This document shows positions 6,228 through 57,242 of a stretch of DNA of 64,000 nucleotides, one piece after another. The translations under genes and the position numbers were made by a program. A model generated the notes under the pieces. The model saw nothing but the letters and a program-made list of their open reading frames with translations. It was not told where the DNA came from and made no database searches. Location of the stretch: contig NC_043008.1 of assembly GCF_006345805.1 (NCBI RefSeq), positions 70,060,001 through 70,124,000 on the forward strand. Reading direction: 5' to 3'. Origin of the DNA: Octopus sinensis (taxonomy: Eukaryota). Position 1 is the stretch's first letter. Every line of letters starts with the position of its first letter.

Positions 6228-7758
6228 TGCATACAGTTATGTATGCACCTCCAAAACATTCTGTGTAATATGAGTATTTGTGTATATCATCAACATATAT
6301 ATGTGTGTGTGTGTTTCCTTCCTCTCTCTCTGTATATATATACATATATATGTGCTAGCATGGAAAGCGGACGCTAAACGATGATGATGATGATATATAT
6401 ATATATACACACATACATACACATATATATACATGTGATATATATGTGTATATAATGATATATAATGATGTATACAATGACTAGTATATTTGACATAATG
6501 TTGCAGATACTGGATACTGACCAATCTAGATTACACTAAAGTAAAAAGTTATTGTCTGATTGACCAATAAAGAGTCTCATTGATGTACACTAGGTGAATG
6601 ATGATGTTAATATCCACATGGCTAAGCTACTGCATAATGATCCATGAGGTCAGAGGTCGGTAGTGTAAGGCCTGTCTCTAGAACAGCATCGTGTTCTATG
6701 TGATTATCAGAATTAGCACACTGAAATCATAGGATGTAAATATAATTACTACAGATAATGTAGAAACAAATCATTGTTGAGCGGAATCGTGATGTATGGT
6801 GAAGAAATTGTCTTTACAACCATGTAGTTCCTAGTTTGATCTCTGCTTGACCAGTACCATATGAGTGGAATTTGGTAGAAAACTAAGTGAAACAATGGTA
6901 TGAGCCAACTAAATCTCCTGATAATGAGTGATTTTGAAACTATTTGTTACATGAACTGACTGGTTTCTATAATTTAAATACGTGTGCCTATGTATATCTG
7001 CGTATACATATATAAACACTCATATAGGCATATTTATACCAGAGGTGAAGGGTGCAAGTATGGCACTCATGCACTGCTTTCCTTACTTTCCTTTGCCGGG
7101 ATAAATAATTTTTGAGTTATATAAAATTAATTATTGATAATTTTTACTATCCTCATTGTACACATGGTACTTTTTTGGTATTTCCCACTCCTTCATTTCT
7201 TAGTATAAATTGTAAACAATTGATATTATTTAAAAAGTGTATGCAAAAAAAGATCCTGTTTGCTAAGTGAGAAAAGAAGTGAAAGCAATGAATTAATTGC
7301 TTTCCTTTTCCCTTTGAGTAGGAAGCCTGAAAGGAAAAAAACACAACAAAGGTGTGGGAAGTCACTGAGAGAAAGGCAGATGAAAGCACAATTTTGTCTG
7401 CTTTCAGTATAAGTAAGAAAAAGCAGTACTGTTAATTCTTTTGTATTTCGTTATTCTCTTCGAGAAGGGAGCATGAAAAAGGGAGACAAAAGAGGAAAAG
7501 GCAGAAATTTTATTGCTTGCCTTTCAGCCATGTTAAGCCAGCAGACACACTGTCAAAATATTTTATCCTGAAGTGCAGTTGTTTTTACCATCCTGTGCAG
7601 CAAAGATCAAAGAATTGCCCCTTCAAAAGACTTACAGCTTTTCTCATAGCCAGACATATTTAGACAAGAAATGCATGTTTAATCAATTTGCATGTTTGTT
7701 ATATAACTGATTCTGGTTTATTTCATATGATTATTCAGTACAGAAGAGTGTATATTTT

Positions 7759-8100
7759 ACTCTTTTACATGTTTCAGTCATTAGACTATGACCATGATAG
7801 GGCTCAGCCTTCAAGAATATTTAGTTGAATGAATCAACCCCAGTACTTTTGTTAAGTTTCATACATATTTTATCATCCTGCATTTGCCAAACCACTAAGT
7901 TACATAAACACACTAACAATGATTGTCAAGTGGTTGTGTTGGACACACACACACACAAGGCTTCTTTCCATTTTTGTCTACCAAATCCACTCACAAGGCT
8001 TTGGCCAGCCTGAAGCTGTAGAAGAGGACACCTGGCTCATGATGCCACACAGTTGAACTGAACTCAGAGACATATGGTACTTCTTACGACACAGCTATGC
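7759..8100 (-). mobile_element. SINE family A, diverged
   Basis: tgtttcagtcattagact..ctaccaaatccactcacaaggctttgg..gatgccacacag. Confidence 0.8.
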
Positions 8101-8479
8101 TTGCTTTTTAAAAAGATTTTACCCATATTCTTGATCCCTTCTTAAAACCTAAATCCAGTCATGCGACCACTACCCAGAATTTTCTTCTTCACTAGTTCAC
8201 ACTTGAGGTGAAAAGAAGCAACTAGCAAAGTTAATTTTTTTGTGATTAAAAAGTAAAGTTTTCATCCATTTGTCCATACCAATACTTCTAAAATTGAATT
8301 TTAAATATTCAAAATTATTTAAAAAGGTTAGATAAAAAAGAAAACTAGCCCTTAAATTGTTTGTCTGAATAAAGCTTCAATCCATTTAAAAATATTATAA
8401 CCCAGTAAAATATTTCAGACTTTCACTCAACCCCAGGATGGTAGTTTCCTTTCTGCTTAACTGACATTTTACAAGAAGC

Positions 8480-10410
8480 AACTTTGACGGGATGTCCCAT
8501 TCTGAACAAATTGTTCTGTTTCCCATGTCTGTTATTTTGTCAGGATAAGAACACATGGACTACTACTGGCTATTGCAATTTGCACAATTTGATTACAGCT
8601 TTGACAAAACACAAAAATCTCAGAACCATCTGAATTCTGTAATTGCTCTGAAAATCTTTGGCTGACAATGGATTGATACAGTAATCAATCACTGGAAAGC
8701 AGCTTTGAGTCAGTTCCATAATAGATCAGTGGAGGAAAATCATGATATATTGAAAAGGTTAATTCATAGTATTGAAATTTTGGCTTGTCAAGAATTACCA
8801 TTTGGCGGACACGATGAAACAGAAGAACCAAACAATAAGGGTAATTTTCTTACTATATGCGAAGCAGTAGCGGAATACAATGATTGTTTAAGATTGCATT
8901 TAGATTTTGTGAAGAAAAATGTCAACTGCACATTTTCTGAACTTTCAAAGTGATATTCAAAATGAGATCATTAATTGTATAGCAGCTATAATTGAAGGTA
9001 AAATTAAGGCAATGATTGAAAAACCAAAACATTTTTTGTTGCTGTTGTTTGATGAGACTACATATCTTCAAACGAAATTTCACTTGTTACACATTGTGCA
9101 ATTTGTTAATGAGAAGGAAAATCGCTAGAAAGAGTTTGGGGATATGTCAATGGCAACTGAAAATTTGTTAATGAATTCAACTGTGGTCAAAAATTCATTG
9201 CATAAACCGTTTGATGGAGTGAGCATGATGACTGGGCATTTGAATGGATACAAGCAAGAATAAAGATTTTTTTTGGTATGACTGTCATATTTGTACATTG
9301 TTATGCATACTCAATTAACTTGGTACTTTCTTAATTGACTTTAAATATTTCTGAAGGTCAAATTTTCTTCCAAACTTTAAAAGAAGTTTCAACTTTTTTC
9401 TCTAAGTTGAGAGCTCAAGTAGCCCTACAAGATGAAATTGTTGGATGGCACTTTCCAAAATTATCAGAGAAACATTTGACTTATTCATTGGGGCAAGTAT
9501 TCATTTTGTCCAACAAAATTACTGAATTTTCTGAGCTATTTTCAATTATATTAGAAAATCCAGAGGATTGGAGAGCTTCAGAATTAGCTCAAGTAAGGGG
9601 ATTCATTGCAATCCTAGAAGATTACCAGTTTAAAGTTTAATTAGTGGTTTCTGAAACCATATTGAGTGACTCAGAGATTCTGTTTTCAAGTTTTCAAAAT
9701 TTCAAATAACAATTGATTGATATTGTTGTGATAGGTGTAATTGCTGTATTAGTCATGGTGTGAGATTAGGCTGGCTGCATATATTACGAACAAGCAAAAC
9801 TTGCAAACATTTAACATCAGATTTATTTAAAGGAAGGCTGAATATGAATATATGCATAAATTATCAAATCCTCATGGTAGAGAGACTAGGTTATAGGGAT
9901 TGACTTAACTGTGGTTGCTCAGGCATTAGTTATGTTAAAGATGTGAGACTGCTGAATCTTCTTGAAGCTTTGTCCTTGATTTGCTTGGTAAGAGCTGAGT
10001 GGTGTTCTCTTCAAATGTCATGAGAGCTCTGGTTGGTTTATTGCTAAATTTCTTAACTGTAGAAAAGGGCATGAATCTCAAGGACATGTGAGATGATGTT
10101 CTAACTGGTAATCTGATCTCCTGCAGACTGATAGGTTGATAGACAGTGTTGACATTAAGATTGTATGCCCTAACTGTGGCTCACTCATGACAGTGAACTG
10201 ATAATTTTGTGAAAGCTGTTCAAATCGTAGGTTCTCACTGCAAATATCAAGAAAAACAGGTTTTGAAGAATTTTACTGCCAAGTTCTGGATGGTGTCACT
10301 GAACCATCAGAGAAGCATGGTTGATATCAAGAACCAGTAGTTATTGTAAGAACTTTGGATAACAACATTTTGCATGAAGTTATTGCTCATGTTGAGCAAA
10401 GATTTAAAAC
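8480..10410 (+). pseudogene. Degenerate hAT transposase (ZMYM1-like/DUF4371 type)
   Basis: Motifs occur in the expected order across frameshifts and stops: GCPILNKLFCFPCLLF (TTF-type Zn finger), LACQELPFGGHDE..NKGNFL, SDIQNEII, FDETT, FDGVSMMTGHLNG, IFVHCYAYSINLVL. Confidence 0.85.
9724..10192. mobile_element. ~470 bp insertion in the hAT relic, possible solo LTR
   Basis: Interrupts the transposase homology and has TG...CA termini (tgttgtga / tcatgaca). No clear target-site duplication. Confidence 0.3.
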
Positions 10411-10744
10411 ATCAATTTTTCCCTTTAAATATATTTATTTATATTATGGCATTACTATACATAAATGCCTCTTGCTAGGAGGGACCCTTAAAGTCAAAAA
10501 CTACCATAACAAACACATTGTACCGAATGCATGGGAATGCAACTCTCGAAGTGAGCCTTTTAAAAACAGCTTGAGCTGCAGATCATAGGATTTCATAATT
10601 AGTGCGCATAATGCACTTTTTAATCTTCATTGCAAGCATAATCAAGACACATAAAAATGAACAAAAGCAACATACCAGACGAACACCAATGTATCCAGCA
10701 TAGTACATAGAATTGTTCACACTTATATATCTATGTAAGATGCG

Positions 10745-11087
10745 GGCTTCTATCGGATTCTTTTGCCAAACTGCTAGGTTATGGGGATGTAAACACGCCA
10801 GCATCGGTTGTCAAGCGATATTGTGTGAACAAGGCGGTGCACTGGCAAAAACGTTAGCACACCGGGCGAAATGCTTAACAGTATTTTGTCTGCCGCTACA
10901 TTCTGAGTTCAAATTCCACCAAGGTCGACTTTGCCTTTCATCCTTTCGGGGTCGATAAAATTAGTAACAGTTACGCGCTGGGGTCGATATAATCGACTTA
11001 ATCCGTTTGTCCTTGTTTGTCCTCTCTGTGTTTAGCCCCTTGTGGGTAGTAAAGAAATAGATATTGTGGGGACAAGCACAGACACAC

Positions 11088-11154
<67 letters not shown>

Positions 11155-11250
11155 CATACACACACACACATGACAGGTTATAGTGGAAGATACTTGCCCA
11201 AGGCAAGAAGGACTGAACCCGGAACCATGTGATTGGCAAGCAAGCTACTA
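10745..11250 (-). mobile_element. SINE family A split by a family B insertion
   Basis: Family A reverse-complement segments at 10745-10830 and 11061-11250. Confidence 0.75.
10831..11060 (+). mobile_element. SINE family B (tRNA-derived head), full length
   Basis: aaggcgg..tggcaaaaacgttagc..gagttcaaattcc B box, central gcctttcatcctttcggggtcgataaa. Imperfect TSD gatattgtg(t/g)g(a/g)ac. Confidence 0.9.
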
Positions 11251-11359
11251 CCAAATAGCCACTCTTGTATCTATATATATATATATATATATATATACGT
11301 ATATATTGTGCATATATGTGTATGTATATAAACATATGTGTGTGTAATGTATATATACA

Positions 11360-11392
<33 letters not shown>

Positions 11393-11968
11393 CTATATAT
11401 ACGTATATATTGTGCATATATGTGTATGTATATAAACATATGTGTGTGTAATGTATATTTACATGTGTGTGTGTATATATATATATATATTGTGTGTATG
11501 TACATGTGTGTGTGTATTTATTCATATACAAATATACGTATGCACATGCATTTACATGCATGTATATATGTATACATATAATGAGAGCGTGTGACATTTG
11601 CTGAATGATTTGTGTTTGTTTTAACTGTTGATTACATGTGTAAATTCTGAGATAAATTACTGGAATAATAATTAAAATTTCTTGAGTATTTGCTTCCTTT
11701 TGGGTATTAAAAGATAACTATATTACTTAATTTTTGATCAACCCAGTCATAAATTCTCTTTTGCTGCTCTGTTCCTCAATACACATTGACAACTTTTATA
11801 TGAGTAGTTATCTGTCTGCTGTGCGTCTATTTGATAAGGATCTGCCTCAGGCTAAACAGTAACAACAGCAACAAATAATATTGAAACAACAACAAAAGCA
11901 ATTGTAAATGGTAATATCGACAAAAAGCATTGACAACTACAACAATAAATACTTCTCTGTTCACCTGC

Positions 11969-12183
11969 TTAATCCTTTCATTACCATATTTCTAATGAAA
12001 TTCACGGTCTTTATTTCAATTAATTTTTAGAATAATGAAGAATTTAATGAAATAACTTAAGCTGATGTTTAGAACATAAATTAACATGAAACTTCATTGG
12101 ATATTTTAATTTAAATCATTTTAAAGAAAGGATTTTATATCATAGGACTAGGGGCAGTTCCAGGCATGTACCAAAAAGCTTAA
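11969..12183. mobile_element. piggyBac-type MITE
   Basis: ttaa-tcctttcattaccatatttc ... taccaaaaagc-ttaa. Left end resembles the 56156 piggyBac end. Related copy at about 24255-24486. Confidence 0.7.
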
Positions 12184-12438
12184 CTCCACAGCAGTTTTGA
12201 TACTCTTACCTTCCCACTTCCCAAAATAGCTGCTTCTAAGGTGTTTGGGTTAAATTTGACAATTTGCTTAAAAGGAAAGAAAACAAAATATTCCATCCAA
12301 AAATAAAAGTATTTTAAAGAATTAAAAAATATTGACTAGGTTCACTGTGCAACAAAATTTTGATATTTTTTTTGTCTTTGGTTAGTAAATGTTATTTACA
12401 ATTTGCTTCTATCTAGTAATCAAAGGAAATAACAACTG

Positions 12439-12745
12439 TTCCTTTCAAACTTCACTTTTGTCCCCTGGACATCAATGTTTTGAAACTGACCTATTTTCCA
12501 TTACATTTCAGACAGATTCAGCACTGAGTTGCTGAAGCAGAAATATCCTTATAACAAATATTTTGCTCAGTACCACAGATTTGCTTGTTAGTTGCTTGAC
12601 CATAACCACTTGGGCATGTTCCTTGGTGGCTGATAATATGTGCATCTCTGACCATGATCAGGAGTAGTGGGAGTGCATTGTAGCATGTGTTGAGAAGGAT
12701 TCTTTGGGGTTTGAATTAATGTAACAAAAGCAAAGTTTGAAGGAA
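12439..12745. mobile_element. Inverted-repeat-bounded element containing a fragment of the 60895-61437 repeat
   Basis: ttcctttcaaacttcacttttgt / acaaaagcaaagtttgaaggaa. Interior 12548-12715 is the reverse complement of about 61185-61335. Confidence 0.55.
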
Positions 12746-12849
12746 ATATTAGCCATTTTTCATACTTTGTTGGGGATAAGAAAATAGGAAATAACAGTTC
12801 CTTCCCAAAGACAAAAATTGGGTTACACAGTGTTATGGCAGTGAGATAA

Positions 12850-13600
12850 CAGTTTATTCAAAGTACCCCCCACCTCCATCAGCTGCCACCATAGCCTCAA
12901 GATGGCTTTAGAACCTGGTGCAGGCATTCCTCACTGTGTCGTTGGGAAAATCTTTGAACACTTCCTTGATCTTGGCCAGCATCTCAGCATTGGTCTTACA
13001 GGCAGGGTGGCTGGTGTCCTTCATAACCACAGTAAACTATGGGATTCCAATTGGGGGAGTTCAGATGCCAGAAATTGATGCTGGTAAAGTGGTGGAAACT
13101 CTCCAACAACCACTTCTCTTTCTGGAGGTATGGCAAGGAGCTTAATTCTGCTGCCACACATATAGCTTTCCAGCAGCAACTCTATTCTGCCAAGGTTTGA
13201 CAACAATCTTCAGCAGCTTCACACTGCCATTCAAACTGAGTCATCAGTTGTTGGATGAATTCCAGCAATCAGAACACCTACTCTGTCCCTTCACGATGGC
13301 CATGGCTTTATAGTCTCCATTGCAGCTGCCCTTGTTACATCTTACAACCTTTACAGTGTTCACAGGGTATTGGACAGCATTCATGATGTCAACATTTTGA
13401 CACCCAGCACAAATCATCATCATACAGGTTACTCTTTTCCAATATTCAGATGGCTTCCAGTCCTCCATGTAAAATAACCTTTTCTCTACTACTACTTTAA
13501 TCTTTATGCTCTCCAGCCCTGTTGACTGTTCCCTAATACATCAAGTTGTTCCTGTAAAAAGGGGGCATAAAAGTCGTCAAATTTAGCACAAACACCCTAC
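12850..13600 (-). pseudogene. Tc1/mariner superfamily (maT/DD37D-like) transposase relic, internally deleted
   Basis: Minus strand WHLNSPNWNPI (compare WPxNSPDLNP) and C-terminal NACTRF*SHLEAMVAADG..YFE*. N-terminal HTH-like ORF at 13244-13468. Possible TIR remnant caccctac at about 13593-13600. Confidence 0.65.
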
Positions 13601-14157
13601 TTACCTACCTACCCACCCATCTATGGGAGCTCAGCATTTTCTGGCACATGTCACTATCTTCTCAAATCTTGCTACAGAAATTTTTAGTTTTCCAAAGTCA
13701 TTTTGATATTTAAGTCAAAAGACCTTGGTCTGGAAAATTCATGCATACCAAAAAATACATTACCTGTTTTTGGACCAGCACTGTAAGACAAATGTCTCGT
13801 CTAATATGTTCTGACACTATAAGCAGCATTCCAGTAAATGCAGAGTTTGGGGATGTAAGGTGTCACCTTTGTGGTCACTGAGATCCCACCTTGTCATCAG
13901 CTCATATACATTGGACTCTGTATTGAGTTTAGTACATATTTGATGATTTTAAGATGAGGGATTATGCAAGAAATAATTAGTGAGAGCAATTAACCTTGTC
14001 ATGTGTTTTTATTATAATTATATTTAATTACCCAGTGTTCCAATTGTTCAATTCTACAAATGTGGCATGTTGCTGTTGTGTCTTTATTTAGTTTTTAATC
14101 TCCAAGAATATATAATTAAGGTTGCACTGTAAGATGATCAGAAATTCTTGTATTACC

Positions 14158-14192
<35 letters not shown>

Positions 14193-15589
14193 TAATAAGA
14201 TACATTTATACATATGTATATAAATATATATGTACATACATACATATGTACATACATATATGTATATATGTATACACACACACAAGAAACTAAAAAAAAA
14301 AAGAGATAAAATAAAGCAGAAACCATTGAGTAATTAAATACAATAATAATAAAATATTTGATGAGGTTAATAATGTGACTAATTATGCTTTGCGAGTGGA
14401 ATGAATATTCACCAAAGCTTTACTACAATGGACATAGCATGTGACTGTATGACAGGTTGCCATGTACAGTTATGTAAAATATCTTAAGAATGTTTCCTTG
14501 GAGTCAAGTTTGCAGAGATCCTCATATTTCTGCAGCTTCACCTTTTCCTTGATCTTATTTCGAATGAAATATGTGAAGTTTCAATTAAGTTTTAAAATAA
14601 CCAAGAATTTGAAGGGATTCAGGAAAATAACTTTTATTTTTAAACTGTTGTATGGAACTTAACAAAAGATTCTTCCATGAAATTGTTGTGGAAAATTTTA
14701 ATTAAATACAGCCTCTTTAAAATGGGATGTTTTGTATCATTGAAGCAAAGAGGCTAGTGAAAGGTGGAGTATTAGAAATAGTTAAACCATACTAATTCCT
14801 CCTCCTCTTTCTTCATTACTCATATGGCCTATTCAGCTATGTTTATTTAATTCATGTCCATTCACAACGCATGACAGTGTGGTTAAGAAAGGAAAGTTTC
14901 CTTCCACAACCACATGATTTTGGTTTCAATACCAGTGTGTCCATCTCAGTCAAGTGTCTTCTACGATAGCTCTGGACTGGTCAATGCTTTGTGGCTGAAT
15001 TTAATGGTTTATTGGGTCACCCTGTGTTTCTTGATCATAAGGCGTTTAAACCCCATAGACTGGCCTACCCCAGTATGATATTAACTGCTCTACATCTAAA
15101 AGTGTAATTCTCCTCCGGATTTATGTATTTCTACAAACGATCATATATATTTATATATATGTGTGTGCGTGAGTGTGTATGTATGTATTTCACAAAATAT
15201 TTATGATCACCAATATGCATTGCAAATTACGTTCATTCATGATCAGCACTTGTTCACTTTACTTACACTTCTCTTTGTTAATGTTCACGTAGTTCCTATT
15301 TTTTTTTATCCATGTTTATTTCCCATGTATTCCACAACAATTGTGTACAAAACTTCAAAAAGTATATTTCCTGATGTTCATTTCTTTATGTTAACTCAGG
15401 ATCACTTCTTTTGTTTACTTGTAGTCACTTCAGTTAACCTGAAGTGAATGAGTTAACATCATGCTCACTCAATTTGTGTTTGCTTCCTCTATATTCACTC
15501 ACTGTTTGTTTACTTATATAGTCATTTATATTTTACTTACATGTATTTGCATTCTTTAGTCCCAGGTTAGCTCTAACATTCCAGTTCTA

Positions 15590-15845
15590 TATATTTAAGA
15601 GATGAGGAATTATGTACATTATTTACATTTGACAGATATTTGTCCTCGTCTTTGTTGTTAACACGTTTCGGCTGATATACCCTCCAGCCTTCACAAGGTG
15701 TCTTGGGGAAATTTCGAATATGGGTTCTCATTCCTAAGGTATTTTTTGATGATATTATTATTATTATTATTATTATTATTAAGGTCCCTGCCTAGAATCG
15801 AACCCAGAATCTTGGGGTTAGTAGTCCACACTCTTAACCAATACA
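15590..15845 (-). mobile_element. tRNA-headed short element carrying a decayed hammerhead motif
   Basis: Minus strand: tggttaagagtgtggactactaaccccaagattctgGGTTCGATTCT (B box), then (AAT)n, then gacac cttgtga a ggctg-loop-cagcc gaaac gtgtt at 15660-15702. Confidence 0.6.
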
Positions 15846-16905
15846 TTCTCCACTATGTCTTTGGGAGGGTGTGATTTAATGTAAATTTGGCTGGTATTTC
15901 CAGCAGCTTGATTGACTGATCATTTATCATGGCATCTACATAAAATGCTCCTTCCCTGGATTTGGCAGTTTTTCATTTTGATAACAGCAGGGTATTTTTT
16001 GGTAAGATATTTCCTTACTACTTCAAACAGATCAACTGGCTACACTGGGACAATTACAAAGACTCGTGTAATCCCTATTTTAATGACCACAGGGAGTTAG
16101 TTGATGGGGAATTAACTTTTAAATAACAGCTTCATTGAGTGACAAGAAAATCTCTCACTCGTTCATTCTGATCTCCTTTTAATGACAATAAGGGAGTTTG
16201 TTAAGGGTTATTTCACTGCTATATTTTGCAGATCAAGTTTACTTCATAAAAACACTCCAGGATACACAACAGTAAAGTATACCACACTGTGTGTCTGTGT
16301 AACTACTACTACTATTTACTCCCTCTTTTCTGATATCAAATGGACCCCGTTTTGAATATAGTGAAGGTTTTTCCTTCAGGTTGAGTTTGTTAGATAAATT
16401 AGCCACAGAGCCCTCTTCTTCTCTCTTGCTCTTCCTCTTTTCACTCCTCCTCCTCTCTTCCCTTCACTCTCCTCCTCTCCAAATCCGCCTCCTCTTCTCT
16501 TTCACCCTTCTCTTTTCTTCCTCTCTCGTTTCTCTCTTACTGTCTTGTGTGCACCTGTATGAAGAAATAACAAAGCACACCCTCATATACACACACATAC
16601 ATACACATTCACAGACACATATACCCACGCATGTATCTACACACTGACTTAACCATACATGTCACACATCTACTAAACAGCTACATACATATATGCACAC
16701 AACTTCACACGTACATACACACTTACACACGCTTTTACATACACACATATTACTACTATGGTGGCATACAGTCTTGAAATTTAGAACTCGAAACATGTGG
16801 CCCTCATTAGAAAGACAATACCACACACTCACACACATGTGCACTCACACAGACATACACACACATGCAAGCACTCACACAAATATACACTCATGCACAC
16901 GGACA

Positions 16906-16937
<32 letters not shown>

Positions 16938-17589
16938 GGCAAACGCTTGCACAGTCAGATATGTGCCACACAGAAGCCTCACATATTTTCTCAAAGATAG
17001 GAATGAAAGATAGTAGATGAGAAAGGAGAGGGTATGACAACAGACAGAGAGAGTGGTACGAAAGTCTTTATGTATGGATGAATGGGATGTAAATGGATGT
17101 GTGTGTGTGTGTGTATTTAAAAAAGGAATAGAAATGGCCTAAACATCCAATAATTGAAGTGGAAAAATTATCAGTAAAGCTATTTCTATTAATTTTTTTC
17201 AAATATATAATACTGTACCAAGGACTTTCTATTTCCTTTTCTGCTATATATATATGTATATATATATATATATATACACACACACTAGCTGTGGACTCAG
17301 CATTGCTTGTGTTTTCCATGTTGAAGTTATGCCCACTTCTGACCTTGTATTAAAATCTTTTCCATTCCCCGTGCCAGCTATTAAACATTAAGATGTTATA
17401 TCTAGTTCGGCAGGGATTTTACTTGGTTAACACTTTCAACATACTCCTACAATCACAGTCAAACTTTTGGGTATACCTCTACCCATTGAGAGTGATGTTT
17501 GTTTATTTCACTCCTCTCAATGCCACCCTCTCTACAAAATTGACCAGCATGTCCAATCTCAACAAAATCCCCCAAAAGTGTTAAGGTTA

Positions 17590-23195: not shown

Positions 23196-23235
<40 letters not shown>

Positions 23236-23237
<2 letters not shown>

Positions 23238-23757
23238 CAATAATAATTCTCTAAATGAGATATAGACAGTGACTGCTCCATAATATATGGCGTCAGCCTA
23301 TCTGGTGACGTTGATGTTCGCCTGGGGCTAAATGCAACAGTGACATCCCCACCACCCTGTCCTGTCCCTAGCCATATTCAGTTGGCTAATGTCCCTTATA
23401 TTATGGAGCAGTCACTGTCTATATCTCATTTAGAGAATTATTATTGCTGTCGAACAGATTTTCGAAATCAGTAAATGTATTTACTTGAAAATCTTTATAT
23501 ATATCTTGCACGGTGAGTTGTTCGTCGAGAGGCGGTGCCTACCACACGTTGATAATAGGCAATACACCTTGAAACCTAGGTCCATGTGTGGCATCCGCTT
23601 CTTGGGGAATGATCTCCCTTTGCAAGATAGAGGACGCCGTGATGGCGTCGGCCTATCTGGTGACGTTGATGTTCGCCTGGGGCTAAATGCAACAGTGACA
23701 CCCCCACCACCTGCCCTGTCCCTAGTCATATTCAGTTGGCTAATGTCCCTTATATTA
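23236..23757 (+). mobile_element. Penelope-like terminal repeat structure (inverted plus direct repeats)
   Basis: Perfect 52 bp inverted repeat 23236-23287 / 23397-23448. ~115 bp direct repeat 23287-23403 / 23642-23757. A hammerhead lies between, and (TA)n flanks both sides. Confidence 0.75.
23542..23591 (+). ncRNA. Type I hammerhead motif with U3-A8 core covariation
   Basis: ccacacg UUGAUAA u agg-caauaca-ccu u GAA ACCUAGGU C caugugugg. Palindromic stem III, triplet GUC. Confidence 0.65.
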
Positions 23758-23780
23758 TATATATATATATATATATATAG

Positions 23781-23818
<38 letters not shown>

Positions 23819-23835
23819 GTGTATCTATGTGTATG

Positions 23836-23880
<45 letters not shown>

Positions 23881-23983
23881 GTGTATCTATGTGTATGTAT
23901 GTGTATATATATATATATATGTATGTATGTGTGTATCTATGTGTATGTATGTGTATATATATATATATATATGTGTATTTATG

Positions 23984-24016
<33 letters not shown>

Positions 24017-28384: not shown

Positions 28385-28698
28385 TGCATACATACACACA
28401 CACTCTCCACTGCATTGACATTATACCCATACATAATATATATATATATATATATATAGTGTACTGTTCTGTGATGATAAGAACAACAAAATGTGTACTC
28501 CGTCTGGTGAGAGATAAGTATTATTTAATAAACACAGTATATGTTTTTATGCTCTACTATTAGTTTCATGTGCTGAGAACATGCCAAACATCATTTTATA
28601 ACATGTCTGGTGTTCTAGCACAAACATCAGTTACTGTCCACACGGCTTAACAAAGCACATAAAACATGTTGTGTTTAATAAACAATACATATATATAC

Positions 28699-28738
<40 letters not shown>

Positions 28739-28740
<2 letters not shown>

Positions 28741-30196
28741 AAGGCAGACAAATCAGAAGTCCCTTCAGGTAGATGGCCCTTCTCAATTTGAAGAAAAGGT
28801 GTACGTAGTAGCTCTGTAAGATGCACGTGGAGTAAGCTTTAGACACATAAAAGGTGTAGCAATACCAGAGGAAGGTTAACAAAGAAAATAGCTTTTGTGT
28901 GTGGTAGATGCTTAGGTACAATGAACACTGAAAATGTACAGAAAATAGACTCCATCAACTGCCATTGGGGTAAGCTAGAAGTAGTAGGTAGCTTCCATTA
29001 TCTAGGTGATCAAGTTAGTAGCAGAGATGGATGCTCCAAGAGCATAGCTGTCAGAATAAGATTAGGCTGGGCAAAGTTTAGAGAGCTCCTGCCTGTGCTG
29101 GCAACAAAGGGCCTCTCTCTCAGAGTGGAAGACAGATTGTATGATGCTTGTGTGCAAACAGCTATGCTACAAGGCAGTGAAACATGGGCTGTGATAACTA
29201 AGGATATGTGTAGGCTTGAAAGAAATGAAACCAGTATGCTTTGCTGGATGTGCAATGTCAGTGTGCATGTTTGACAAAGTGTAAGCATCTTGAAAGGCAT
29301 TGAGGTGTCAGATGTGGTGTGCAAGGGAGACGAATGTACTGGTATGGTCATGTGATGCATATGGATGAGGATAGCCGTGTAAAAGAATGTGCTGATCCCT
29401 AACTGTAGGGGGAAACTGTGGTAGAGGTAGTCCCAGGAAAACATGGGGTGAGGTGGTGAAGCATGATCTCCAAACTTTGGGCCTCACAGAGGTAATGACT
29501 AGTGACTGAAACCTTTGGCGATGTGCTGTGCTTGAGAGGACCTGTAAAGCCAAGTGAAATTGCAGTCATAGCTGATGCTGGTGTCATGTAACTGGCACCT
29601 GTGCAGGTGACATGTAAAAAGCACCTTTTGAGCATTGAGCTTCATGAAGGCAAAGTGGTTGAGTTCCTTTCAAATGTTGGACTTCACAGAGACGATGACT
29701 GAGACCTTTGGCGTTATGTTGTGCTTGTGAAGAAGACCCATCAAGCCAAGCAAAATTGCAGTCATGGCAGATACCATTGTCATGCAAATTGCTCCTGTGC
29801 TGGTGACAGACAAAAGCACCGTTTGAACATTGGGCCTCGTGGAGGCAAGGACTGAGACCATTTGGCATTATGCCAGGTTTCAAGTGTTGGGCCTCACTGA
29901 GACAATGACTGAGTCCATTTGTCACTATGCTGTGCTTGAGAAGAAGAGCCACCAAGCCAAGTAAAACCACAGTCATGGCAGATACTGGTGTCACACAAAT
30001 GGCACCCGTGCCAGTGGCACATAAAAGCACTCATTATACTCTCAGGGTAGTTGGTAATAGAAAGGGCATCCAGCTGTAGAAACCATGCCAAAACAAACTG
30101 GTATCTAGTGCAGCCTTCCATCTTTCCAGCTCTGGTCAAGCCATCCAACCCATGCCAACATGGACAACAGACGTTAAGTGGTGATGATGATGATGA
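28739..30196 (+). mobile_element. RTE-clade LINE 3' fragment with tandemly repeated 3' region (copy 1)
   Basis: ORF 28897-29274: LEVVGSFHYLGD...RIRLGWAKFRELLPVL...LYDACVQTAMLQGSETW, followed by RWYGHV-like and RGSPRKTW motifs. Ends in the family C tail and (GAT)n. Confidence 0.9.
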
Positions 30197-30826
30197 CACC
30201 AACTCTGCTATTACAGATTAAGAGATTTGGAACACTTTTCTCAAGTAGATGGCGATGTTTCATCCTAGTTTATATACATAAATACATATATGTTTACCTG
30301 ACAGAAAAAAAAATAAACATAATATAAAAATAAAACATACTGTTTTATTATAAGCAAAGATATAAATGACATGATTAATGGCTCAAACAATTCATTAATC
30401 ATTGGTAATAATCAGTCACCCTAAAATATTTAACTGATTAAAATATTGCGTTACCTTAATGAAGTATATAACTTGTACATTTGATATCAGTTCCAGCTTC
30501 AATATCGAATATTATTTCTAGGCTTGCTCTAATATAATTTCACAATTAGAATCTCTAGAGAATCCATACAAGTCCAATAACTGAGGATATATTCTAGATC
30601 AAGGCTAGAAATAATTTATTACAGAAAGTTAATTAATTAATTAATTAATATGATCGATGGTGTGTTACATAATTTTCCTCATACACTAATTGTCAAATAT
30701 ACATCACCAGATAAATTATTCTCATTATTCATAGTTTCCTTCTCTCTTTCTCCTCTCTTACTTTCTGCCCTTCACTCTCTCTTTCTTTTCCTATGCACAC
30801 ACACACACACATGCACATGCATTGCA

Positions 30827-30875
<49 letters not shown>

Positions 30876-32332
30876 GGAAGGCAGACAAATCAGAAGTCCT
30901 TCAGGTAGATGGCCCTTCTCAATTTGAAGAAAAGGTGTACGTAGTAGCTCTGTAAGATGCACGTGGAGTAAGCTTTAGACACATAAAAGGTGTAGCAATA
31001 CCAGAGGAAGGTTAACAAAGAAAATAGCTTTTGTGTGTGGTAGATGCTTAGGTACAATGAACACTGAAAATGTACAGAAAATAGACTCCATCAACTGCCA
31101 TTGGGGTAAGCTAGAAGTAGTAGGTAGCTTCCATTATCTAGGTGATCAAGTTAGTAGCAGAGATGGATGCTCCAAGAGCATAGCTGTCAGAATAAGATTA
31201 GGCTGGGCAAAGTTTAGAGAGCTCCTGCCTGTGCTGGCAACAAAGGGCCTCTCTCTCAGAGTGGAAGACAGATTGTATGATGCTTGTGTGCAAACAGCTA
31301 TGCTACAAGGCAGTGAAACATGGGCTGTGATAACTAAGGATATGTGTAGGCTTGAAAGAAATGAAACCAGTATGCTTTGCTGGATGTGCAATGTCAGTGT
31401 GCATGTTTGACAAAGTGTAAGCATCTTGAAAGGCATTGAGGTGTCAGATGTGGTGTGCAAGGGAGACGAATGTACTGGTATGGTCATGTGATGCATATGG
31501 ATGAGGATAGCCGTGTAAAAGAATGTGCTGATCCCTAACTGTAGGGGGAAACTGTGGTAGAGGTAGTCCCAGGAAAACATGGGGTGAGGTGGTGAAGCAT
31601 GATCTCCAAACTTTGGGCCTCACAGAGGTAATGACTAGTGACTGAAACCTTTGGCGATGTGCTGTGCTTGAGAGGACCTGTAAAGCCAAGTGAAATTGCA
31701 GTCATAGCTGATGCTGGTGTCATGTAACTGGCACCTGTGCAGGTGACATGTAAAAAGCACCTTTTGAGCATTGAGCTTCATGAAGGCAAAGTGGTTGAGT
31801 TCCTTTCAAATGTTGGACTTCACAGAGACGATGACTGAGACCTTTGGCGTTATGTTGTGCTTGTGAAGAAGACCCATCAAGCCAAGCAAAATTGCAGTCA
31901 TGGCAGATACCATTGTCATGCAAATTGCTCCTGTGCTGGTGACAGACAAAATCACCGTTTGAACATTGGGCCTCATGGAGGCAAGGACTGAGACCATTTG
32001 GCATTATGCCAGGTTTCAAGTGTTGGGCCTCACTGAGACAATGACTGAGTCCATTTGTCACTATGCTGTGCTTGAGAAGAAGAGCCACCAAGCCAAGTAA
32101 AACCACAGTTATGGCAGATACTGGTGTCACACAAATGGCACCCGTGCCAGTGGCACATAAAAGCACTCATTATACTCTCAGGGTGGTTGGTAATAGAAAG
32201 GGCATCCAGCTGTAGAATCCATGCCAAAACAAACTGGTATCTAGTGCAGCCTTCCATCTTTCCAGCTCTGGTCAAGCCATCCAACCCATGCCAACATGGA
32301 CAACAGACGTTAAGTGGTGATGATGATGATGA
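30876..32332 (+). mobile_element. RTE-clade LINE 3' fragment (copy 2)
   Basis: ORF 31033-31410 gives the same protein as copy 1. Confidence 0.9.
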
Positions 32333-32960
32333 CACCAACTCTGCTATTACAGATTAAGAGATTTGGAACACTTTTCTCAAGTAGATGGCGATGTTTCATC
32401 CTAGTTTATATACATAAATACATATATGTTTACCTGACAGAAAAAAAAATAAACATAATATAAAAATAAAACATACTGTTTTATTATAAGCAAAGATATA
32501 AATGACATGATTAATGGCTCAAACAATTCATTAATCATTGGTAATAATCAGTCACCCTAAAATATTTAACTGATTAAAATATTGCGTTACCTTAATGAAG
32601 TATATAACTTGTACATTTGATATCAGTTCCAGCTTCAATATCGAATATTATTTCTAGGCTTGCTCTAATATAATTTCACAATTAGAATCTCTAGAGAATC
32701 CATACAAGTCCAATAACTGAGGATATATTCTAGATCAAGGCTAGAAATAATTTATTACAGAAAGTTAATTAATTAATTAATTAATATGATCGATGGTGTG
32801 TTACATAATTTTCCTCATACACTAATTGTCAAATATACATCACCAGATAAATTATTCTCATTATTCATAGTTTCCTTCTCTCTTTCTCCTCTCTTACTTT
32901 CTGCCCTTCACTCTCTCTTTCTTTTCCTATGCACACACACACACACATGCACATGCATTG

Positions 32961-33011
<51 letters not shown>

Positions 33012-42319: not shown

Positions 42320-43146
42320 ATCCTTAAATCCTTAAAAATGTTTTAGCCCGAAGGCCGCGGCCATGCTGGGGCACCACCGCTGAATGAGCTACACTAGTTT
42401 GTGAATCCACCTCTGATACGTGGCACTTGATCAACAAGGGAGTTCGATGCTGCTGCCCGCATCCGTGTCTCCTGTCGTGAGGTAGGTTCATCTGTGACTC
42501 CCAACAAGAAGAGATCCAGTTTAATTTTAAAGAAACCACATCCACACCATGTAAGTCTCTCAGGCATTTAGGGAGGATGTTAAAGAGCTGTGGTCCTCTG
42601 AAACCCAAGCTGTTGCAGTATCTGGACCTGTATTTTGATGGTGATGTTGGAATCCTTGGCACCACGCAGCGGCGCCCCGTTCTGCGGTTGGAGTAACTTT
42701 GAATGCCAAAGTTTGGGACAAGACCCTCCAGGATTTTCCAGATGTATATCACTGCATATCTCTCCCGCCTCCGCTCCAGGGAGAAGAGGTTTAATACCTT
42801 CAGTCTTTCCCAGTAGCTGACATTTTGCATTGAGACGATTTTCTTTGTGTAGCTTCTCTGAGTTGCTTCGAGTTCTGCTGTTTGTTTTATATTGTGTGGT
42901 GACCAAAGTTGGGAGCAGTAGTCCAAGCGGCTGAGGACAAATGTTTTCCATAGGACCATCAGTGTCTCCTTCTCTCTTGTTCTGAAAGTTTGGAGAATCC
43001 ATCCAGCTAACCGTCTGCATTTTATCACCAGATTAGCAATATGCATTTGGAAAGATGCATCATTGCTCATGTCAATGCCCAGGTCACGCACTGATTTTGA
43101 CTCAGGGATTGCAATTCTTCCTGGGCCAGTGTATCCAGTCTTCACG

Positions 43147-43147
<1 letters not shown>
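42320..43147 (-). mobile_element. CR1-group LINE, 5'-truncated 3' fragment, relatively young
   Basis: VRDLGIDMSNDASFQMHI..WKTFVLSRLDYCSQLWSPH..LEATQRSYTKKI..SYWERLKVLNLFSLERRRER, open for more than 200 codons, flanked by (TA)n. Confidence 0.92.
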
Positions 43148-43177
<30 letters not shown>

Positions 43178-43178
<1 letters not shown>

Positions 43179-43510
43179 TGCCAGTGACGTTAAAAGCACC
43201 ATTTGAGCATTGGGCCTCATGGTGGCAGTGACAGGTAACCAAGACCCTTGGTGATATACAGTGCTTGTGTTGTCCTGTAAAACCAAATGAGACCATACTC
43301 ATGACCGATGTGGGTGTCAGGTCAATAGCTCCCATGCCAGCGGTACGTAAAATGTACCCACTACACTCTCAGAGCGGATGGCATTAGGAAGGGCATCCAG
43401 CTGTAGAAACCTTGGCAAATCAGATTGGAACCTGGTGCAGCCCAGTGGCTCACCAGTTTTCGGTCAAACTCATGCTGGCATGGAAAGCAGACATTAAATG
43501 ATGATGATGA
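43178..43510 (+). mobile_element. SINE/RTE-tail family C
   Basis: gagcattgggcctcatgg..ttaggaagggcatccagctgtagaaacc..catgctggcatggaaagcagacattaaatgatgatga. Confidence 0.85.
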
Positions 43511-43525
43511 TACATACATACACAT

Positions 43526-43938
43526 AGGCACAGGAGTGGCTGTGTGGTAAGTAGCTTGCTAACCAGCCTCATGGTTCCGGGTTCAGTCCCACTGCGTGGC
43601 ATCTTGGGCAAGTGTCTTCTGCTATAGCCCCGGGCTGACCAATACCTTGTGAGTGGATTTGGTAGACGGAAACTGAAAGAAGCCTGTTGTATATATGTAT
43701 ATATATATATATGTATGTGTGTGTGTTTGTGTGTCTGTGTTTGTTCCCCTAGCATTGCTTGACAACCGATGCTGGTATGTTTATGTCTCCGTTACTTAGC
43801 GGTTCGGCAAAAAGAGACCGATAGAATAAGTACTGGGCTTACAAAAAGAATAAGTCCCGGGGTCGAGTTGCTCGACTAAAGGCGGTGCTCCAGCATGGCC
43901 GCAGTCAAATGACTGAAACAAGTAAAAGAGTAAAGAGT
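43526..43938 (+). mobile_element. SINE family A, full length (tRNA-derived)
   Basis: A box tggctgtgtggtaag, B box gggttcagtccc, body, internal microsatellite, tail tgaaacaagtaaaagagtaaagag. Confidence 0.93.
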
Positions 43939-44023
43939 ATATGTATATATATATATATATATATTTTCATACATATGTGTATATATATATATACATACAT
44001 CTATATATATATGTATAAATGTG

Positions 44024-44065
<42 letters not shown>

Positions 44066-44145
44066 TACATGCACGTATATTTGTATATATATATGTGTAT
44101 GTATATATAATCAAATTAAAATAAGCAACAGGATAACAAGAGGTG

Positions 44146-44233
44146 ATGCAGTACGACTGTTTCAAGTGGCTCCATTTAATTGAACAATGCAATCATTACA
44201 TCAGTTTAAATGCAGGGCTATCCTCAGCTGCAT
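44146..44233 (-). ncRNA. Type I hammerhead motif with long stem II, intact core
   Basis: augcag CUGAGGA uag...cauuuaa...uuaaaug...cuu GAAAC-aguc-GUA cugcau. Stem I is 6 bp perfect. Confidence 0.65.
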
Positions 44234-45201
44234 AGATAAATAAATAGAATTTTTATTTTCAGTTGCAGGCATTAATATAATTTTACTCAAATTCTCTAAT
44301 AGAGTAAGAAGGAGAAAGTCCATGTTGCTACTAATGTGACTCAGAACATGCTACACTTCTAAGAACTGTATGAAGTTTGTTAGGGTCATAGCTTGTAAAT
44401 GATTGTGGGTCACTTTTAATTTATTAATCTTTTTTTTTTATCAACTACCAAATCTAAGACTAGAGGACAGTGTATGGATAGAGTTGACAGTTTGTAGCTG
44501 GGTATGGTCATAGATATTGTCAGGATTTAGAAACTGTATAAGTAAATGTCTATAAAGGAGGCTGGGGAGAAGACCCTAAATCAAGGTGTTAATTACCAGT
44601 TAAAGGAGCAAGACGCTGATAAAACTTATGATAATACAGAGGAAATTATCATGAGGTACAATGGATGATTATATATAAACAATATTGTTATGTTGTATGA
44701 AGATAAAATATAAGATTACTAAAAATATTATAACCAGGGTAGATAACTGTGTATGTATACAAATTTTCAACATTAGAAAGGGAAGATTACATAGAATTAG
44801 ATTAATCTTCATACCTGTACTTAATCATTTACTTATAAGGTGGTTTCTATAAAGCTTGCTTTACATTTATACATTTACTTATACATTTTCTAAATCCTGA
44901 TAATATTCACAATCATACCCAGCTATAAACTGTCAACTCACTCTGCCTATCTTCTCTAAACAGACACTGTCCTCTAGTCTTAGATTTGGTAGTTGATAAA
45001 AAAAGACTAATAGATTAAAAGTGAACCACAATCATTTACAAGCTATGACCTAACAAACTTCATACAGTTCTTAGAGGTGTAGCATGTTCTGAGTCACATT
45101 AGTAGCAACTTGGACTTTCCCCCTCTTCTTGCTCTATTAGAAAATTTGAGTAAAATCATAGTAATGTGTGCAACTGATTAAAATATTCTATTTATTTATT
45201 T

Positions 45202-45289
45202 ATGCAGCTGAGGATAGACCTGCATTTAAACTGATGTAATGATTGCATTGTTCAATTAAATGGAGCCACTTGAAACAGTCATACTGCAT
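45202..45289 (+). ncRNA. Second copy of the long-stem-II hammerhead (GUA changed to AUA)
   Basis: atgcag ctgagga ... gaaacagtcata ctgcat. The G16.2-to-A change breaks the C15.2-G16.2 pair. Confidence 0.55.
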
Positions 45290-45416
45290 CACCTCTTGAT
45301 ACCCTGTTGCTTATTTTAATTTGATTTTATTCACCTTACTTTGAGTTGTACAGATAATACCACACTAACTTGGTGCTTCAACTTAAGTACCTAACTCAAT
45401 TGAATCGCAATTATTT

Positions 45417-45458
<42 letters not shown>

Positions 45459-45587
45459 ATATATATATATGCATGTATATATAAGTGTGTATATATATAT
45501 ATATATATGCATGTATATATAAGTGTGTATATATATATATATATGCATGTATATATAAGTGTGTATATATATATATATGTATGTATA

Positions 45588-45732: not shown

Positions 45733-45739
45733 AGTATAA

Positions 45740-46250
45740 TGTTTGTTGACACCACACCTAAGAACGAATTAAGTAAGGCATTTAAGAAAATCCTGCGCAC
45801 AGCTGGCCTTAAAATCTAAGTTGTAGAAAAGACTGGTAGGACTATCAAATCTGTTTTATGTAGATCATATCCATTTGATGGAATCACGTGCCAAAATAAT
45901 TGTGCAGTATGTTCTACAAACCCACATGTGAACTGCAAAACCAAGAGCACTGTATACCAAATTAAGTGCCAAGAAGGAGCTTGCATGACTAACCCAGAGT
46001 CATACATAGGTGAGACTTCTAGGAGTATCAATGATAGGTTCAAAGAACACCTGGACAACTACATTGAAAAGAAAGCAAACCCCATCTTCTATCAGCATGC
46101 TGTAGACTGCCACAAGGGCTCCTTAGGGAGACTTAAGTTAAACATCCTATCCACACATCCCACTGATGCAATGCTGAGACAAGTCACTGAAACTGTCTGT
46201 ATACAAGACTACAATCCCACTCACAACCATAAATCCGAATGGGGTAACAT
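45740..46250 (+). pseudogene. Penelope-like element C-terminal GIY-YIG endonuclease fragment
   Basis: C..NCAVC..NCKTKSTVYQIKC...SYIGETSRSINDRFKEH...H...H...RQVTETVCIQDYNPTHNHKSEWG, with an upstream in-frame stop. Confidence 0.9.
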
Positions 46251-46584
46251 CCAGATTTCACTTGGGAGTACCATTCTAAAGCCACCCCTTTCTCTCGTTT
46301 ACATGTGGTAATCTATACATACATGTTGAAATGCATGATACTAAAATACATATATGCAGTTATATATAACCATATGAGCGTACATAGTTTGGTACATATG
46401 TACGTATGTGTAGAAGTATATGTGTGTGTATGTGTTGTGTGTTGTGTATAAGTATGTACATGCATGCACATATGAGTATGTGTAGATATATGTATGTATT
46501 GTATATGTATGCATGTAAAAAAAGAATAAATAGAATAAAATAAAGCAAATTTGAATTTTAACTATTGTCCTTGAAAAGACTGTC

Positions 46585-56155: not shown

Positions 56156-57242
56156 CCCTTTTGTTACTATATTTCTGACCAAAATACACCCCTTATGTGT
56201 TTCAATTAATTTCTAACGTAATCATAAATTTAGTCTGGTTTCATTAAACAACTATAACTTTTTTATTTATCAATATATTAACATGAATTTTGGAAGATAA
56301 TTTAATGAAATGTTCTCAACCAATTCTATACTATAATTTTTGTCACAAAGTGACTCTAATTGCAGGTAGATACAGGTAAATTCAACAATATATAAAATTA
56401 TTAAAATTTTGTTCAAACATCGCTATAGAAAATGGGTTATTAGCTAATATTCAATTGGGTATACAACAAAATTTTACGATAGAATTTGTTATTCTGGGTA
56501 AATTTCTGATACCCATAATAATATTTATGGCAAAATAGGCTTTAATTTCATTTAAGGTTGTGGGAAATAACAAACTATCCTTTCTTTCGCTTTGTTTACG
56601 TTTAGCGTAACGGTTTGTTTCTGCCGTAATGATTTCAAATAGGCTCATTCGAAAAAGTAAAAAGAAATAGTTTAAGGCTTTACTCTTCTGGGAAAGTCTG
56701 TGGCTTGGTCCAGTTTCTTCAGAAAAATCACCGAAAGAAACAGTTTTTAAATTTTCACTCCATTCAGGTGCCAATTCATTTTCTTTATCGCTGTTGGAGC
56801 TCTCAGATTCACTGTTTTCACTTTCGGAAAATGAAACATCAGATTCATTATCAAATACCACATACTTTTTTTTTTCAGTCATAGAGTTAGATTTATGAAG
56901 GTCTTCAGTAGAAAATCCTTCGAATTCTGACTCGCTGCTTGATATAATGAAATTTGTATCCATTTTTTGTCAGAATTACAAATTTTGAAAACACAATAGG
57001 AACAAATTTCGGGAAAAAATCTCCCATAATTCACGGAATTAAAATTACACTTCGATTTTTGTACAAAACTGTAGTTGAACTGTTTATGAAGTATAATACG
57101 TGTTTTCACGAATGTACTAAAGAGATTTACTCTGATATTCTCATTTAAATATGAACAGGTAAATTCGGGCGGTTTGGGGCGGCTTGGTCACATTAACCCA
57201 AATTTTTTTCGGGCGGTTTCGGGTGGTTTGGTAACAAAAGGG
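56156..57242 (-). mobile_element. piggyBac element, internal-deletion derivative, 1087 bp
   Basis: TTAA TSDs (56152-56155, 57243-57246), perfect 12 bp TIR CCCTTTTGTTAC, subterminal ttcgggcggttt repeats. Confidence 0.95.
56451..56963 (-). CDS. Truncated piggyBac (PGBD4-like) transposase N-terminus
   Basis: Acidic N-terminus SSSESEFEGF, then YFFLLF..FEIITAETNRYA..PTTLNEIKAYFAINIIMGI.NLP. No DDD catalytic domain. Confidence 0.8.
   Translation of the reverse strand: MDTNFIISSSESEFEGFSTEDLHKSNSMTEKKKYVVFDNESDVSFSESENSESESSNSDKENELAPEWSENLKTVSFGDFSEETGPSHRLSQKSKALNYFFLLFRMSLFEIITAETNRYAKRKQSERKDSLLFPTTLNEIKAYFAINIIMGIRNLPRITNSIVKFCCIPN

Follow-up and report, generated by a model that had tools for sequence, protein, structure and literature searches.

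Whether the 522-base non-coding repeat copy that sits within a TA microsatellite at this locus is a mobile unit in its own right, a remnant of a longer element or a satellite-type repeat, and what copied it into place, are the questions addressed here. The window, meaning the whole 64-kb stretch of DNA that was analysed, is AT-rich, microsatellite-rich, animal-type DNA whose short repeats are reminiscent of octopus. Our analysis suggests a non-LTR retrozyme of ~355 bp, present here as a solo, dispersed copy that Penelope-type machinery likely placed in (TA)n from a more-than-unit template; we regard this reading as probable.

The hammerhead motif and its setting

The original prediction placed a UUGAUAA core, a palindrome and a GUC site cut after 23582 in this copy, and all are present where it placed them. 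The motif (23529–23601, forward strand) has the layout of a type I hammerhead with an open-ended helix I (6+4+7 bp, interrupted by an internal loop), a helix II and a short helix III, and it combines these three helices with the core, the GAAA element, the GUC triplet and a 3-8 pair. The core reads TTGATAA in DNA (23549–23555), with U3 and A8. It is followed by helix II (23556–23570), which comprises a U.U mismatch, 3 bp and the loop CAAUACA; by GAAA (23571–23574); by the palindrome ACCUAGGU (23574–23581; ACCTAGGT in DNA); and by GUC (23580–23582; GTC in DNA), with cleavage predicted after C17 at 23582 by standard hammerhead numbering. The internal loop that follows the first 6 bp of helix I and the CAAUACA loop 2 are candidate elements for a loop 1–loop 2 contact, a layout that we take to resemble the Schistosoma hammerhead motif. 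Within a monomer, helix III amounts to 2 bp closing CUAG, whereas between two ribozymes the palindrome forms an 8-bp duplex; the computed energies are +2.9 kcal/mol for the monomer hairpin and −11.4 kcal/mol for the duplex.

The original prediction took the core, with its compensatory swap, to be unlikely by chance. A relaxed type I hammerhead descriptor matched this site alone in the 64-kb window; when the 64 kb were shuffled 60 times with dinucleotides preserved, five relaxed hits arose in all (0.08 per window), none of them with a palindromic helix III. The segment 23525–23605 folds at −34.3 kcal/mol (z −4.1), which none of 200 shuffles equalled. Rfam returned no match at gathering score across the 64-kb window, and its 16 weak matches to 23200–23800 at E≤10 included no hammerhead. 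Pattern scans also recovered 61 metagenome and 85 viral loci, which were rejected as chance: none of the 146 matched the unit by blastn (E≤0.01), and none possessed both helix I and helix II. Six short AT-rich blastn matches to phages were dismissed on their query coverage of 9–10%.

The predicted partial tandem of ~355 bp and its perfect 52-bp inverted end were both found. A full non-coding unit of 355 bp occupies 23287–23641 (+), circularly permuted with respect to the predicted cut site. Its GC content of 44.8%, its length and its type I hammerhead place it within the range of non-LTR retrozymes (non-coding repeats of 150–450 bp with GC below 50%). Direct repeats at 23287–23404 and 23642–23758 (both +) lie 355 apart and are 95.8% identical over 118 bp, with five differences. 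The first is pseudo-LTR-like, a putative product of more-than-unit copying; the second stops at what would be the first reverse-transcription start, 175 nt beyond the cut site. On the left, a (TA)16 microsatellite (23205–23236), the putative insertion target, adjoins a 52-bp inverted arm (23236–23287, minus strand) that perfectly matches the reverse complement of 23397–23448. The left end is an outward-facing copy starting 45 nt further 3' than the right end. The 45-bp stretch in question (23404–23448, +), present at the inverted left end and absent from the right end, would correspond to the Penelope 'tail' between two reverse-transcription starts. On the right, the target continues as (TA)n/(TATG)n (23756–24005), and because both flanks are (TA)n, any target-site duplication at the element is hidden. 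No second copy of the unit was found within the 64-kb window. As a circle, the 355-bp monomer is predicted to fold at −115.2 kcal/mol (z −5.6; none of 100 shuffles as good), highly self-paired as in non-LTR retrozymes.

Unit, fragment or satellite

Part of the element was detected in 20 of 24 public sequencing runs, and the contigs of four (X1, X3, X10 and X15) were aligned to 23365–23760 at 80% likeness. X1 derives from organism A and the other three from organism B; the run types are guesses made by the tool, DNA for X1 and X3 and RNA for X10 and X15. All four runs contain a family of ~355–360 bp without a branch into a long element. The aligned contigs number 568 in X1 and 733 in X3 and cover 29 of 29 bins, and the share that continues into unlike sequence is 0.01 and 0, respectively; as contigs omit rare variants, these figures could conceal a long element that has the same end but is present in few copies. 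Summed depth ranges from 7,500 to 1.1 million across the unit, with several single contigs at ~30–40. It is highest at 23659–23714 in all four runs, a segment that may be the most conserved part of the unit and might act as a promoter or be recognised by the helper. Loose ends before 23609–23610 and 23655 in X10 and X15 belong to more diverged subfamilies with another 3' strand of helix I.

One contig in X10 (record 9) spans 23365–23735 in 390 nt, with a 13-nt overhang at its start and a period of 360. Its ends overlap by 17 + 13 = 30 nt, as reckoned from lengths with the 13 letters themselves unread, and since 30 is k−1 for a 31-mer assembly, this overlap marks a closed 360-nt cycle. A circle would yield such a contig, but so would a tandem transcript or tandemly arranged DNA. 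As to the tandem or permuted copies with a ~355-bp period that the original prediction proposed to look for, this contig has a period of 360 and the locus itself extends head to tail for 1.33 units; no long tandem array was seen among the contigs, which are short. Two joints in X3 that appear to go back from 23711 to 23365 were dropped as tandem evidence, being an artefact of the 35-bp overlap in the reference 23365–23760.

The best surviving alternative, though an unlikely one, is that a long autonomous Penelope-like element (PLE) inserted here as a partial tandem and lost its 5' part, so that its pseudo-LTR region with the hammerhead is all that is left. Truncation at the 5' end is described for most PLE insertions, along with copies in partial tandem or inverted orientation (PMC8557442), and U3-A8 hammerheads are known from the Cercyon PLEs of Schistosoma, with ~1,300 hits (2014, PMC4209133). 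Depth also falls to ~7,500–17,500 at 23491–23532, with unlike loose ends, and a stop-free frame crosses 23434–23757. This frame, however, lacks a Pfam match, and comparison with 136 longer candidates yielded no homologue at E≤1 (weak evidence); in the sister subfamily described below, several single-base indels cross it. The longest ATG-initiated open reading frame on the closed unit encodes 81 aa, and searches by open reading frame, Pfam and homologue revealed no reverse transcriptase plus GIY-YIG frame within the element. An ATG at 23584 was ruled out as a start codon, as it owes its existence to a base private to this copy. Moreover, the unit closes on itself at the locus and in the X10 contig, and the family spans it whole. 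The contigs thus do not behave as colinear fragments of a long coding element, the outcome that the original prediction had set against itself, and its non-coding, retrozyme-like monomer of ~355 nt is supported.

Less probable still is a satellite-type repeat spread by unequal crossover, gene conversion and extrachromosomal circles, in which the hammerhead would be inherited baggage and the inversion noise from microsatellite repair. A published model derives satellite growth from PLE ends (bioRxiv 10.64898/2026.07.22.740005), and two of the five differences between the direct repeats lie where family members themselves vary (G or A at 23650; an indel of one C at 23709–23710), as DNA-level mixing predicts. 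Yet both ends of the copy run outward into (TA)n, 45 nt apart, and other contigs cease fitting at 23448, 23451 and 23454, which weakly suggests that other copies have the same tail end. The two repeats also share a rare G (23342/23697) at a position where A makes up 95% of X1 depth, which argues for one source, and the compensatory changes of the ribozyme, set out below, imply selection on RNA structure.

Cores and base pairing across the family

This copy differs from its relatives beside the cut site. At 23584 it carries A, whereas G accounts for 85697 of 85728 depth in X1 and for the entire depth in X3, X10 and X15; G is thus the family state and A is private to this copy. The A breaks pair 2 of helix I, leaving a C.A mismatch that adjoins the cut site. 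In part because of this mismatch, the fold of this copy favours a slipped register, with a minimum free energy of −28.0 kcal/mol against −17.0 kcal/mol for the active monomer fold. Owing to the private mismatch, its ribozyme is predicted to be impaired, and is probably poor or dead.

A sister subfamily, ~86% identical, was phased on single contigs (X10 record 9, depth 30; X15 record 19, depth 813). It carries C at 23549, C at 23550 and G at 23554, giving the core CCGAUGA (C3, C4, G8), and A-T at 23577–23578, giving the sequence ACCAUGGU, which is palindromic still. Of the ten substitutions listed for the sister contig across the ribozyme (23529–23601), nine affect bases that pair, and in each of these the pair is kept or restored; the exception, on an unpaired position, is U4C. 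The paired changes comprise UA>CG at the 3-8 pair, UA>AU at the palindrome centre, and UA>AU, GC>GU, GU>AU and CA>CG in helix I. Ten random substitutions matched the observed retention in 2 of 200,000 trials, for a pair list that was drawn up after the variants were seen, the middle and outer helix I pairs being already in the earlier fold; 26 rows of differences, and ~5 of the 42 differences of record 9, fall outside the list. The swap at the palindrome centre pairs in the dimer only. These compensatory changes indicate selection on RNA structure. In the circular fold beyond the ribozyme, 11 of 23 substituted paired positions break (indels ignored), so covariation backs the ribozyme alone.

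The original prediction read U3-A8 as a compensatory swap of the tertiary 3-8 pair. This pair does covary within the family, U-A versus C-G, although U3-A8 was already a published natural hammerhead variant (Perreault 2011, PMC3088659). U3 makes up 98% of X1 depth at 23549 (C, 1161 of 65890) and A8 79% at 23554. U3 being the majority letter, U3-A8 was amplified there rather than produced by the decay of one copy. We estimate ~2,800 copies in X1, and ~2,100 with U3 (85,728 depth divided by 30.8 for the window's A), to be read as an order of magnitude, since depth is not copy number and X1 may be the source of the window. C3 contributes 1.8% of depth in X1 and 80–84% in X3, X10 and X15, rough shares in that short divergent contigs align unevenly. 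G8 occurs on more contigs than C3 (10 versus 3 in X3; 3 versus 1 in X15), and some U3.G8 copies therefore exist. A large U3.G8 class in X1 was dropped, its excess being explicable by contigs clipped between 23549 and 23554. In X3, X10 and X15 the depth of C3 equals that of C4, so that an abundant CUGAUGA class is not seen in these runs. Both abundant subfamilies lack the CUGANGA consensus core and carry different non-consensus ones (U3-A8; C4), with some U3.G8 copies besides. An unconserved core was the other outcome that the original prediction had set against itself, and this check too came out in its favour, although the letters of the core are not uniform across the subfamilies. That U3-A8 is no more than two chance mutations in a dead, canonical CUGANGA copy, and functionally meaningless, is the most improbable alternative: C>T and G>A changes are frequent, and a private damaging one is present in this copy at 23584, but the many U3-A8 copies, including contigs in X10 and X15 with 0–2 differences from this one (records 10, 13, 18 and 23), largely refute such an origin.

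Insertion model and comparison with known systems

The element was likely moved by a helper PLE, which would have supplied a reverse transcriptase and a GIY-YIG endonuclease; its insertion resembles those that these enzymes make. Within the window, 45733–46275 (+), beside (TA)n, encodes a decayed C-terminal GIY-YIG endonuclease fragment of an RT-EN element (Pfam E 3e-5). It is 43% identical to the end of its best homologue, which is 799 aa long and has a YVDD motif further upstream; of the three homologues scanned with Pfam, none was assigned to a family. Judged by its sequence it is a Penelope-like remnant, which shows that this genome has contained such helpers. A comparison within the window found no DNA common to this fragment and the ~355-bp unit; the unit matched none of the window's PLE remnants, and a helper related to it in sequence was not found there. 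Two further sites in the window bear hammerhead-like cores. Segments 43938–44552 and 44868–45543 form an inverted pair, ~80% identical, between TA runs, each arm with a CTGAGGA...GAAACAGTC core and a very long middle (45208 +, 44227 −); the fold is not significant (z −1.5), and the pair is possibly another Penelope-type inverted insertion. On the minus strand, 443–407 carries a canonical CTGATGA core with an extra A, a 4-bp helix II and GAAAC..GTC, and its helix I is unpaired beside the core; it is probably an old PLE-type hammerhead. Other features of the window include a 2.18-kb tandem duplication (28689–30870 and 30827–33005, 99.5% identity), which is a recent event or an assembly artefact; a piggyBac-like transposase fragment at 56451–56969 (−; Pfam DDE_Tnp_1_7, E 9e-8); and an open frame of 324 codons without a Pfam match at 42324–43298 (−), which presumably resembles the end of a LINE ORF.

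In the model that we propose, tandem units would be transcribed, and their ribozymes are predicted to cut well as dimers only, via the palindrome, and weakly, because of U3-A8 or C4, the U.U base of helix II and the 2-bp helix III. The helper enzyme would nick both (TA)n strands. From one primer, copying would begin at an internal position of the RNA, 175 nt beyond the cut site, and continue for 471 nt (1.33 units) across the intact cut site; from the other, it would begin 45 nt further 3' and continue for 52 nt. Head-to-head joining of the two cDNAs would then yield the inverted arm, and a later G-to-A change would have altered helix I of this copy. In L1 twin priming, the inverted segment adjoins the start of the direct part, which is not so in this copy. 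The insertion is young.

The original prediction expected a circular or multimeric template. A direct part of 471 nt with its cut site intact does require more template than one cleaved monomer: the RNA was a circle or a multimer left uncut, or the enzyme jumped between templates. We lean somewhat towards an uncut multimer over a ligated circle. The direct repeats differ at 5 of 236 positions against 1 of 341 for the rest of the copy (Fisher p 0.044), which has one private change in the 237-bp unique part and none in the inverted pair. As the repeats diverge more than the rest, and as two of their five differences are variable within the family, the comparison leans to a linear multimer of non-identical units; these sequence differences thus suggest, modestly, such a template rather than one circle copied 1.33 times. 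More speculatively, it is conceivable that selection maintains a deliberately weak, dimer-only hammerhead because a multimer or circle has to stay uncut for a Penelope reverse transcriptase to copy across the cut site, that the two ends are the helper's two internal start sites, that the unit is a minimal natural Penelope substrate, and that surveys for CUGANGA miss such families.

The footprint at this locus resembles that of endonuclease-bearing PLEs, whose insertions are described as partial tandems that carry a tail on one side and a 5'-truncated copy in inverted orientation, with a bias to AT-rich or microsatellite targets (PMC8557442, PMC11167929). The same combination is found here, unlike those PLEs in a unit of 355 bp without an open reading frame rather than in 3–4 kb, and with a tail of 45 bp against the 30–40 bp described. 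In vitro, the PAc protein of the anole cleaves AT-rich DNA on both strands and extends each of them, two internal start sites bound the tail, and the RNA is used unprocessed; the 3' end lying downstream of an uncut ribozyme is a further likeness to the present copy (PMC11167929). PLEs have been named as candidate movers of retrozymes (PMC7229834), and a recent preprint adds PLE–retrozyme co-occurrence and phylogeny, leaving the mechanism to be worked out (Li et al. 2026, bioRxiv 10.64898/2026.07.22.740005). The tail and inverted-arm footprint does not figure in the descriptions consulted from these two sources.

As a repeat, the element resembles the animal non-LTR retrozymes: a type I hammerhead, a non-coding repeat below 50% GC and many dispersed monomers, within the 150–450 bp reported for them and close in size to those of mussel (350–390 bp) and axolotl (330/350) (Cervera and de la Pena 2020, PMC7229834). 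The weak palindromic helix III and the U.U base of helix II also occur in axolotl motifs, and the U10.1-U11.1 opening of helix II is on record (PMC3088659; HHR_Amex2 of axolotl, PMC7229834). Unlike known non-LTR retrozymes, the abundant subfamilies carry UUGAUAA and CCGAUGA instead of CUGANGA. The 'active' retrozyme of Li et al. is a dimer, whereas this locus has one hammerhead and by their criterion is therefore a solo monomer; in Xenopus, only one of nine predicted retrozyme dimers cleaved in vitro (bioRxiv 10.64898/2026.07.22.740005). The plant LTR retrozyme has a type III hammerhead in each LTR, unlike the single type I motif between repeats seen here.

The cores also have precedents. The Schistosoma Cercyon U3-A8 hammerheads share the compensatory 3-8 swap, active in vitro in their case, and the palindromic helix III, and both dimer and circle models are given for them (PMC4209133). 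Those motifs are minimal, with a long helix II and a short helix I, and lie in the pLTRs of coding elements; here the layout is fuller (6-bp helix I, internal loop, short helix II), the unit is non-coding and the swap occurs between sister subfamilies. The C4 of the sister subfamily is common to a viroid U4C variant that is much less active in vitro yet supports infectivity (PMC3088659). In the viroid it is a variant, whereas in this family an entire genomic subfamily carries it, as do the contigs of greatest depth in the two RNA-guessed runs. A literature search that covered few subscription journals and did not extend to Repbase listed no publication reporting such cores in a retrozyme family, or retrozymes in cephalopods, and the main text of an octopus repeat annotation does not contain the word 'ribozyme' (PMC13282606).

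Each ingredient has thus been published already, and this is not a new kind of system. What is new is the pair of abundant subfamilies with non-consensus cores and a retrozyme bearing a Penelope integration footprint, to which the covariation within the family adds value. The tail and inverted arm give footprint evidence that PLE enzymes move animal retrozymes, and name start sites that can be tested. The family is also a natural instance of covariation, both in the 3-8 tertiary pair and in a helix III that pairs in the dimer only, and suggests that retrozymes are undercounted by searches for the consensus core.
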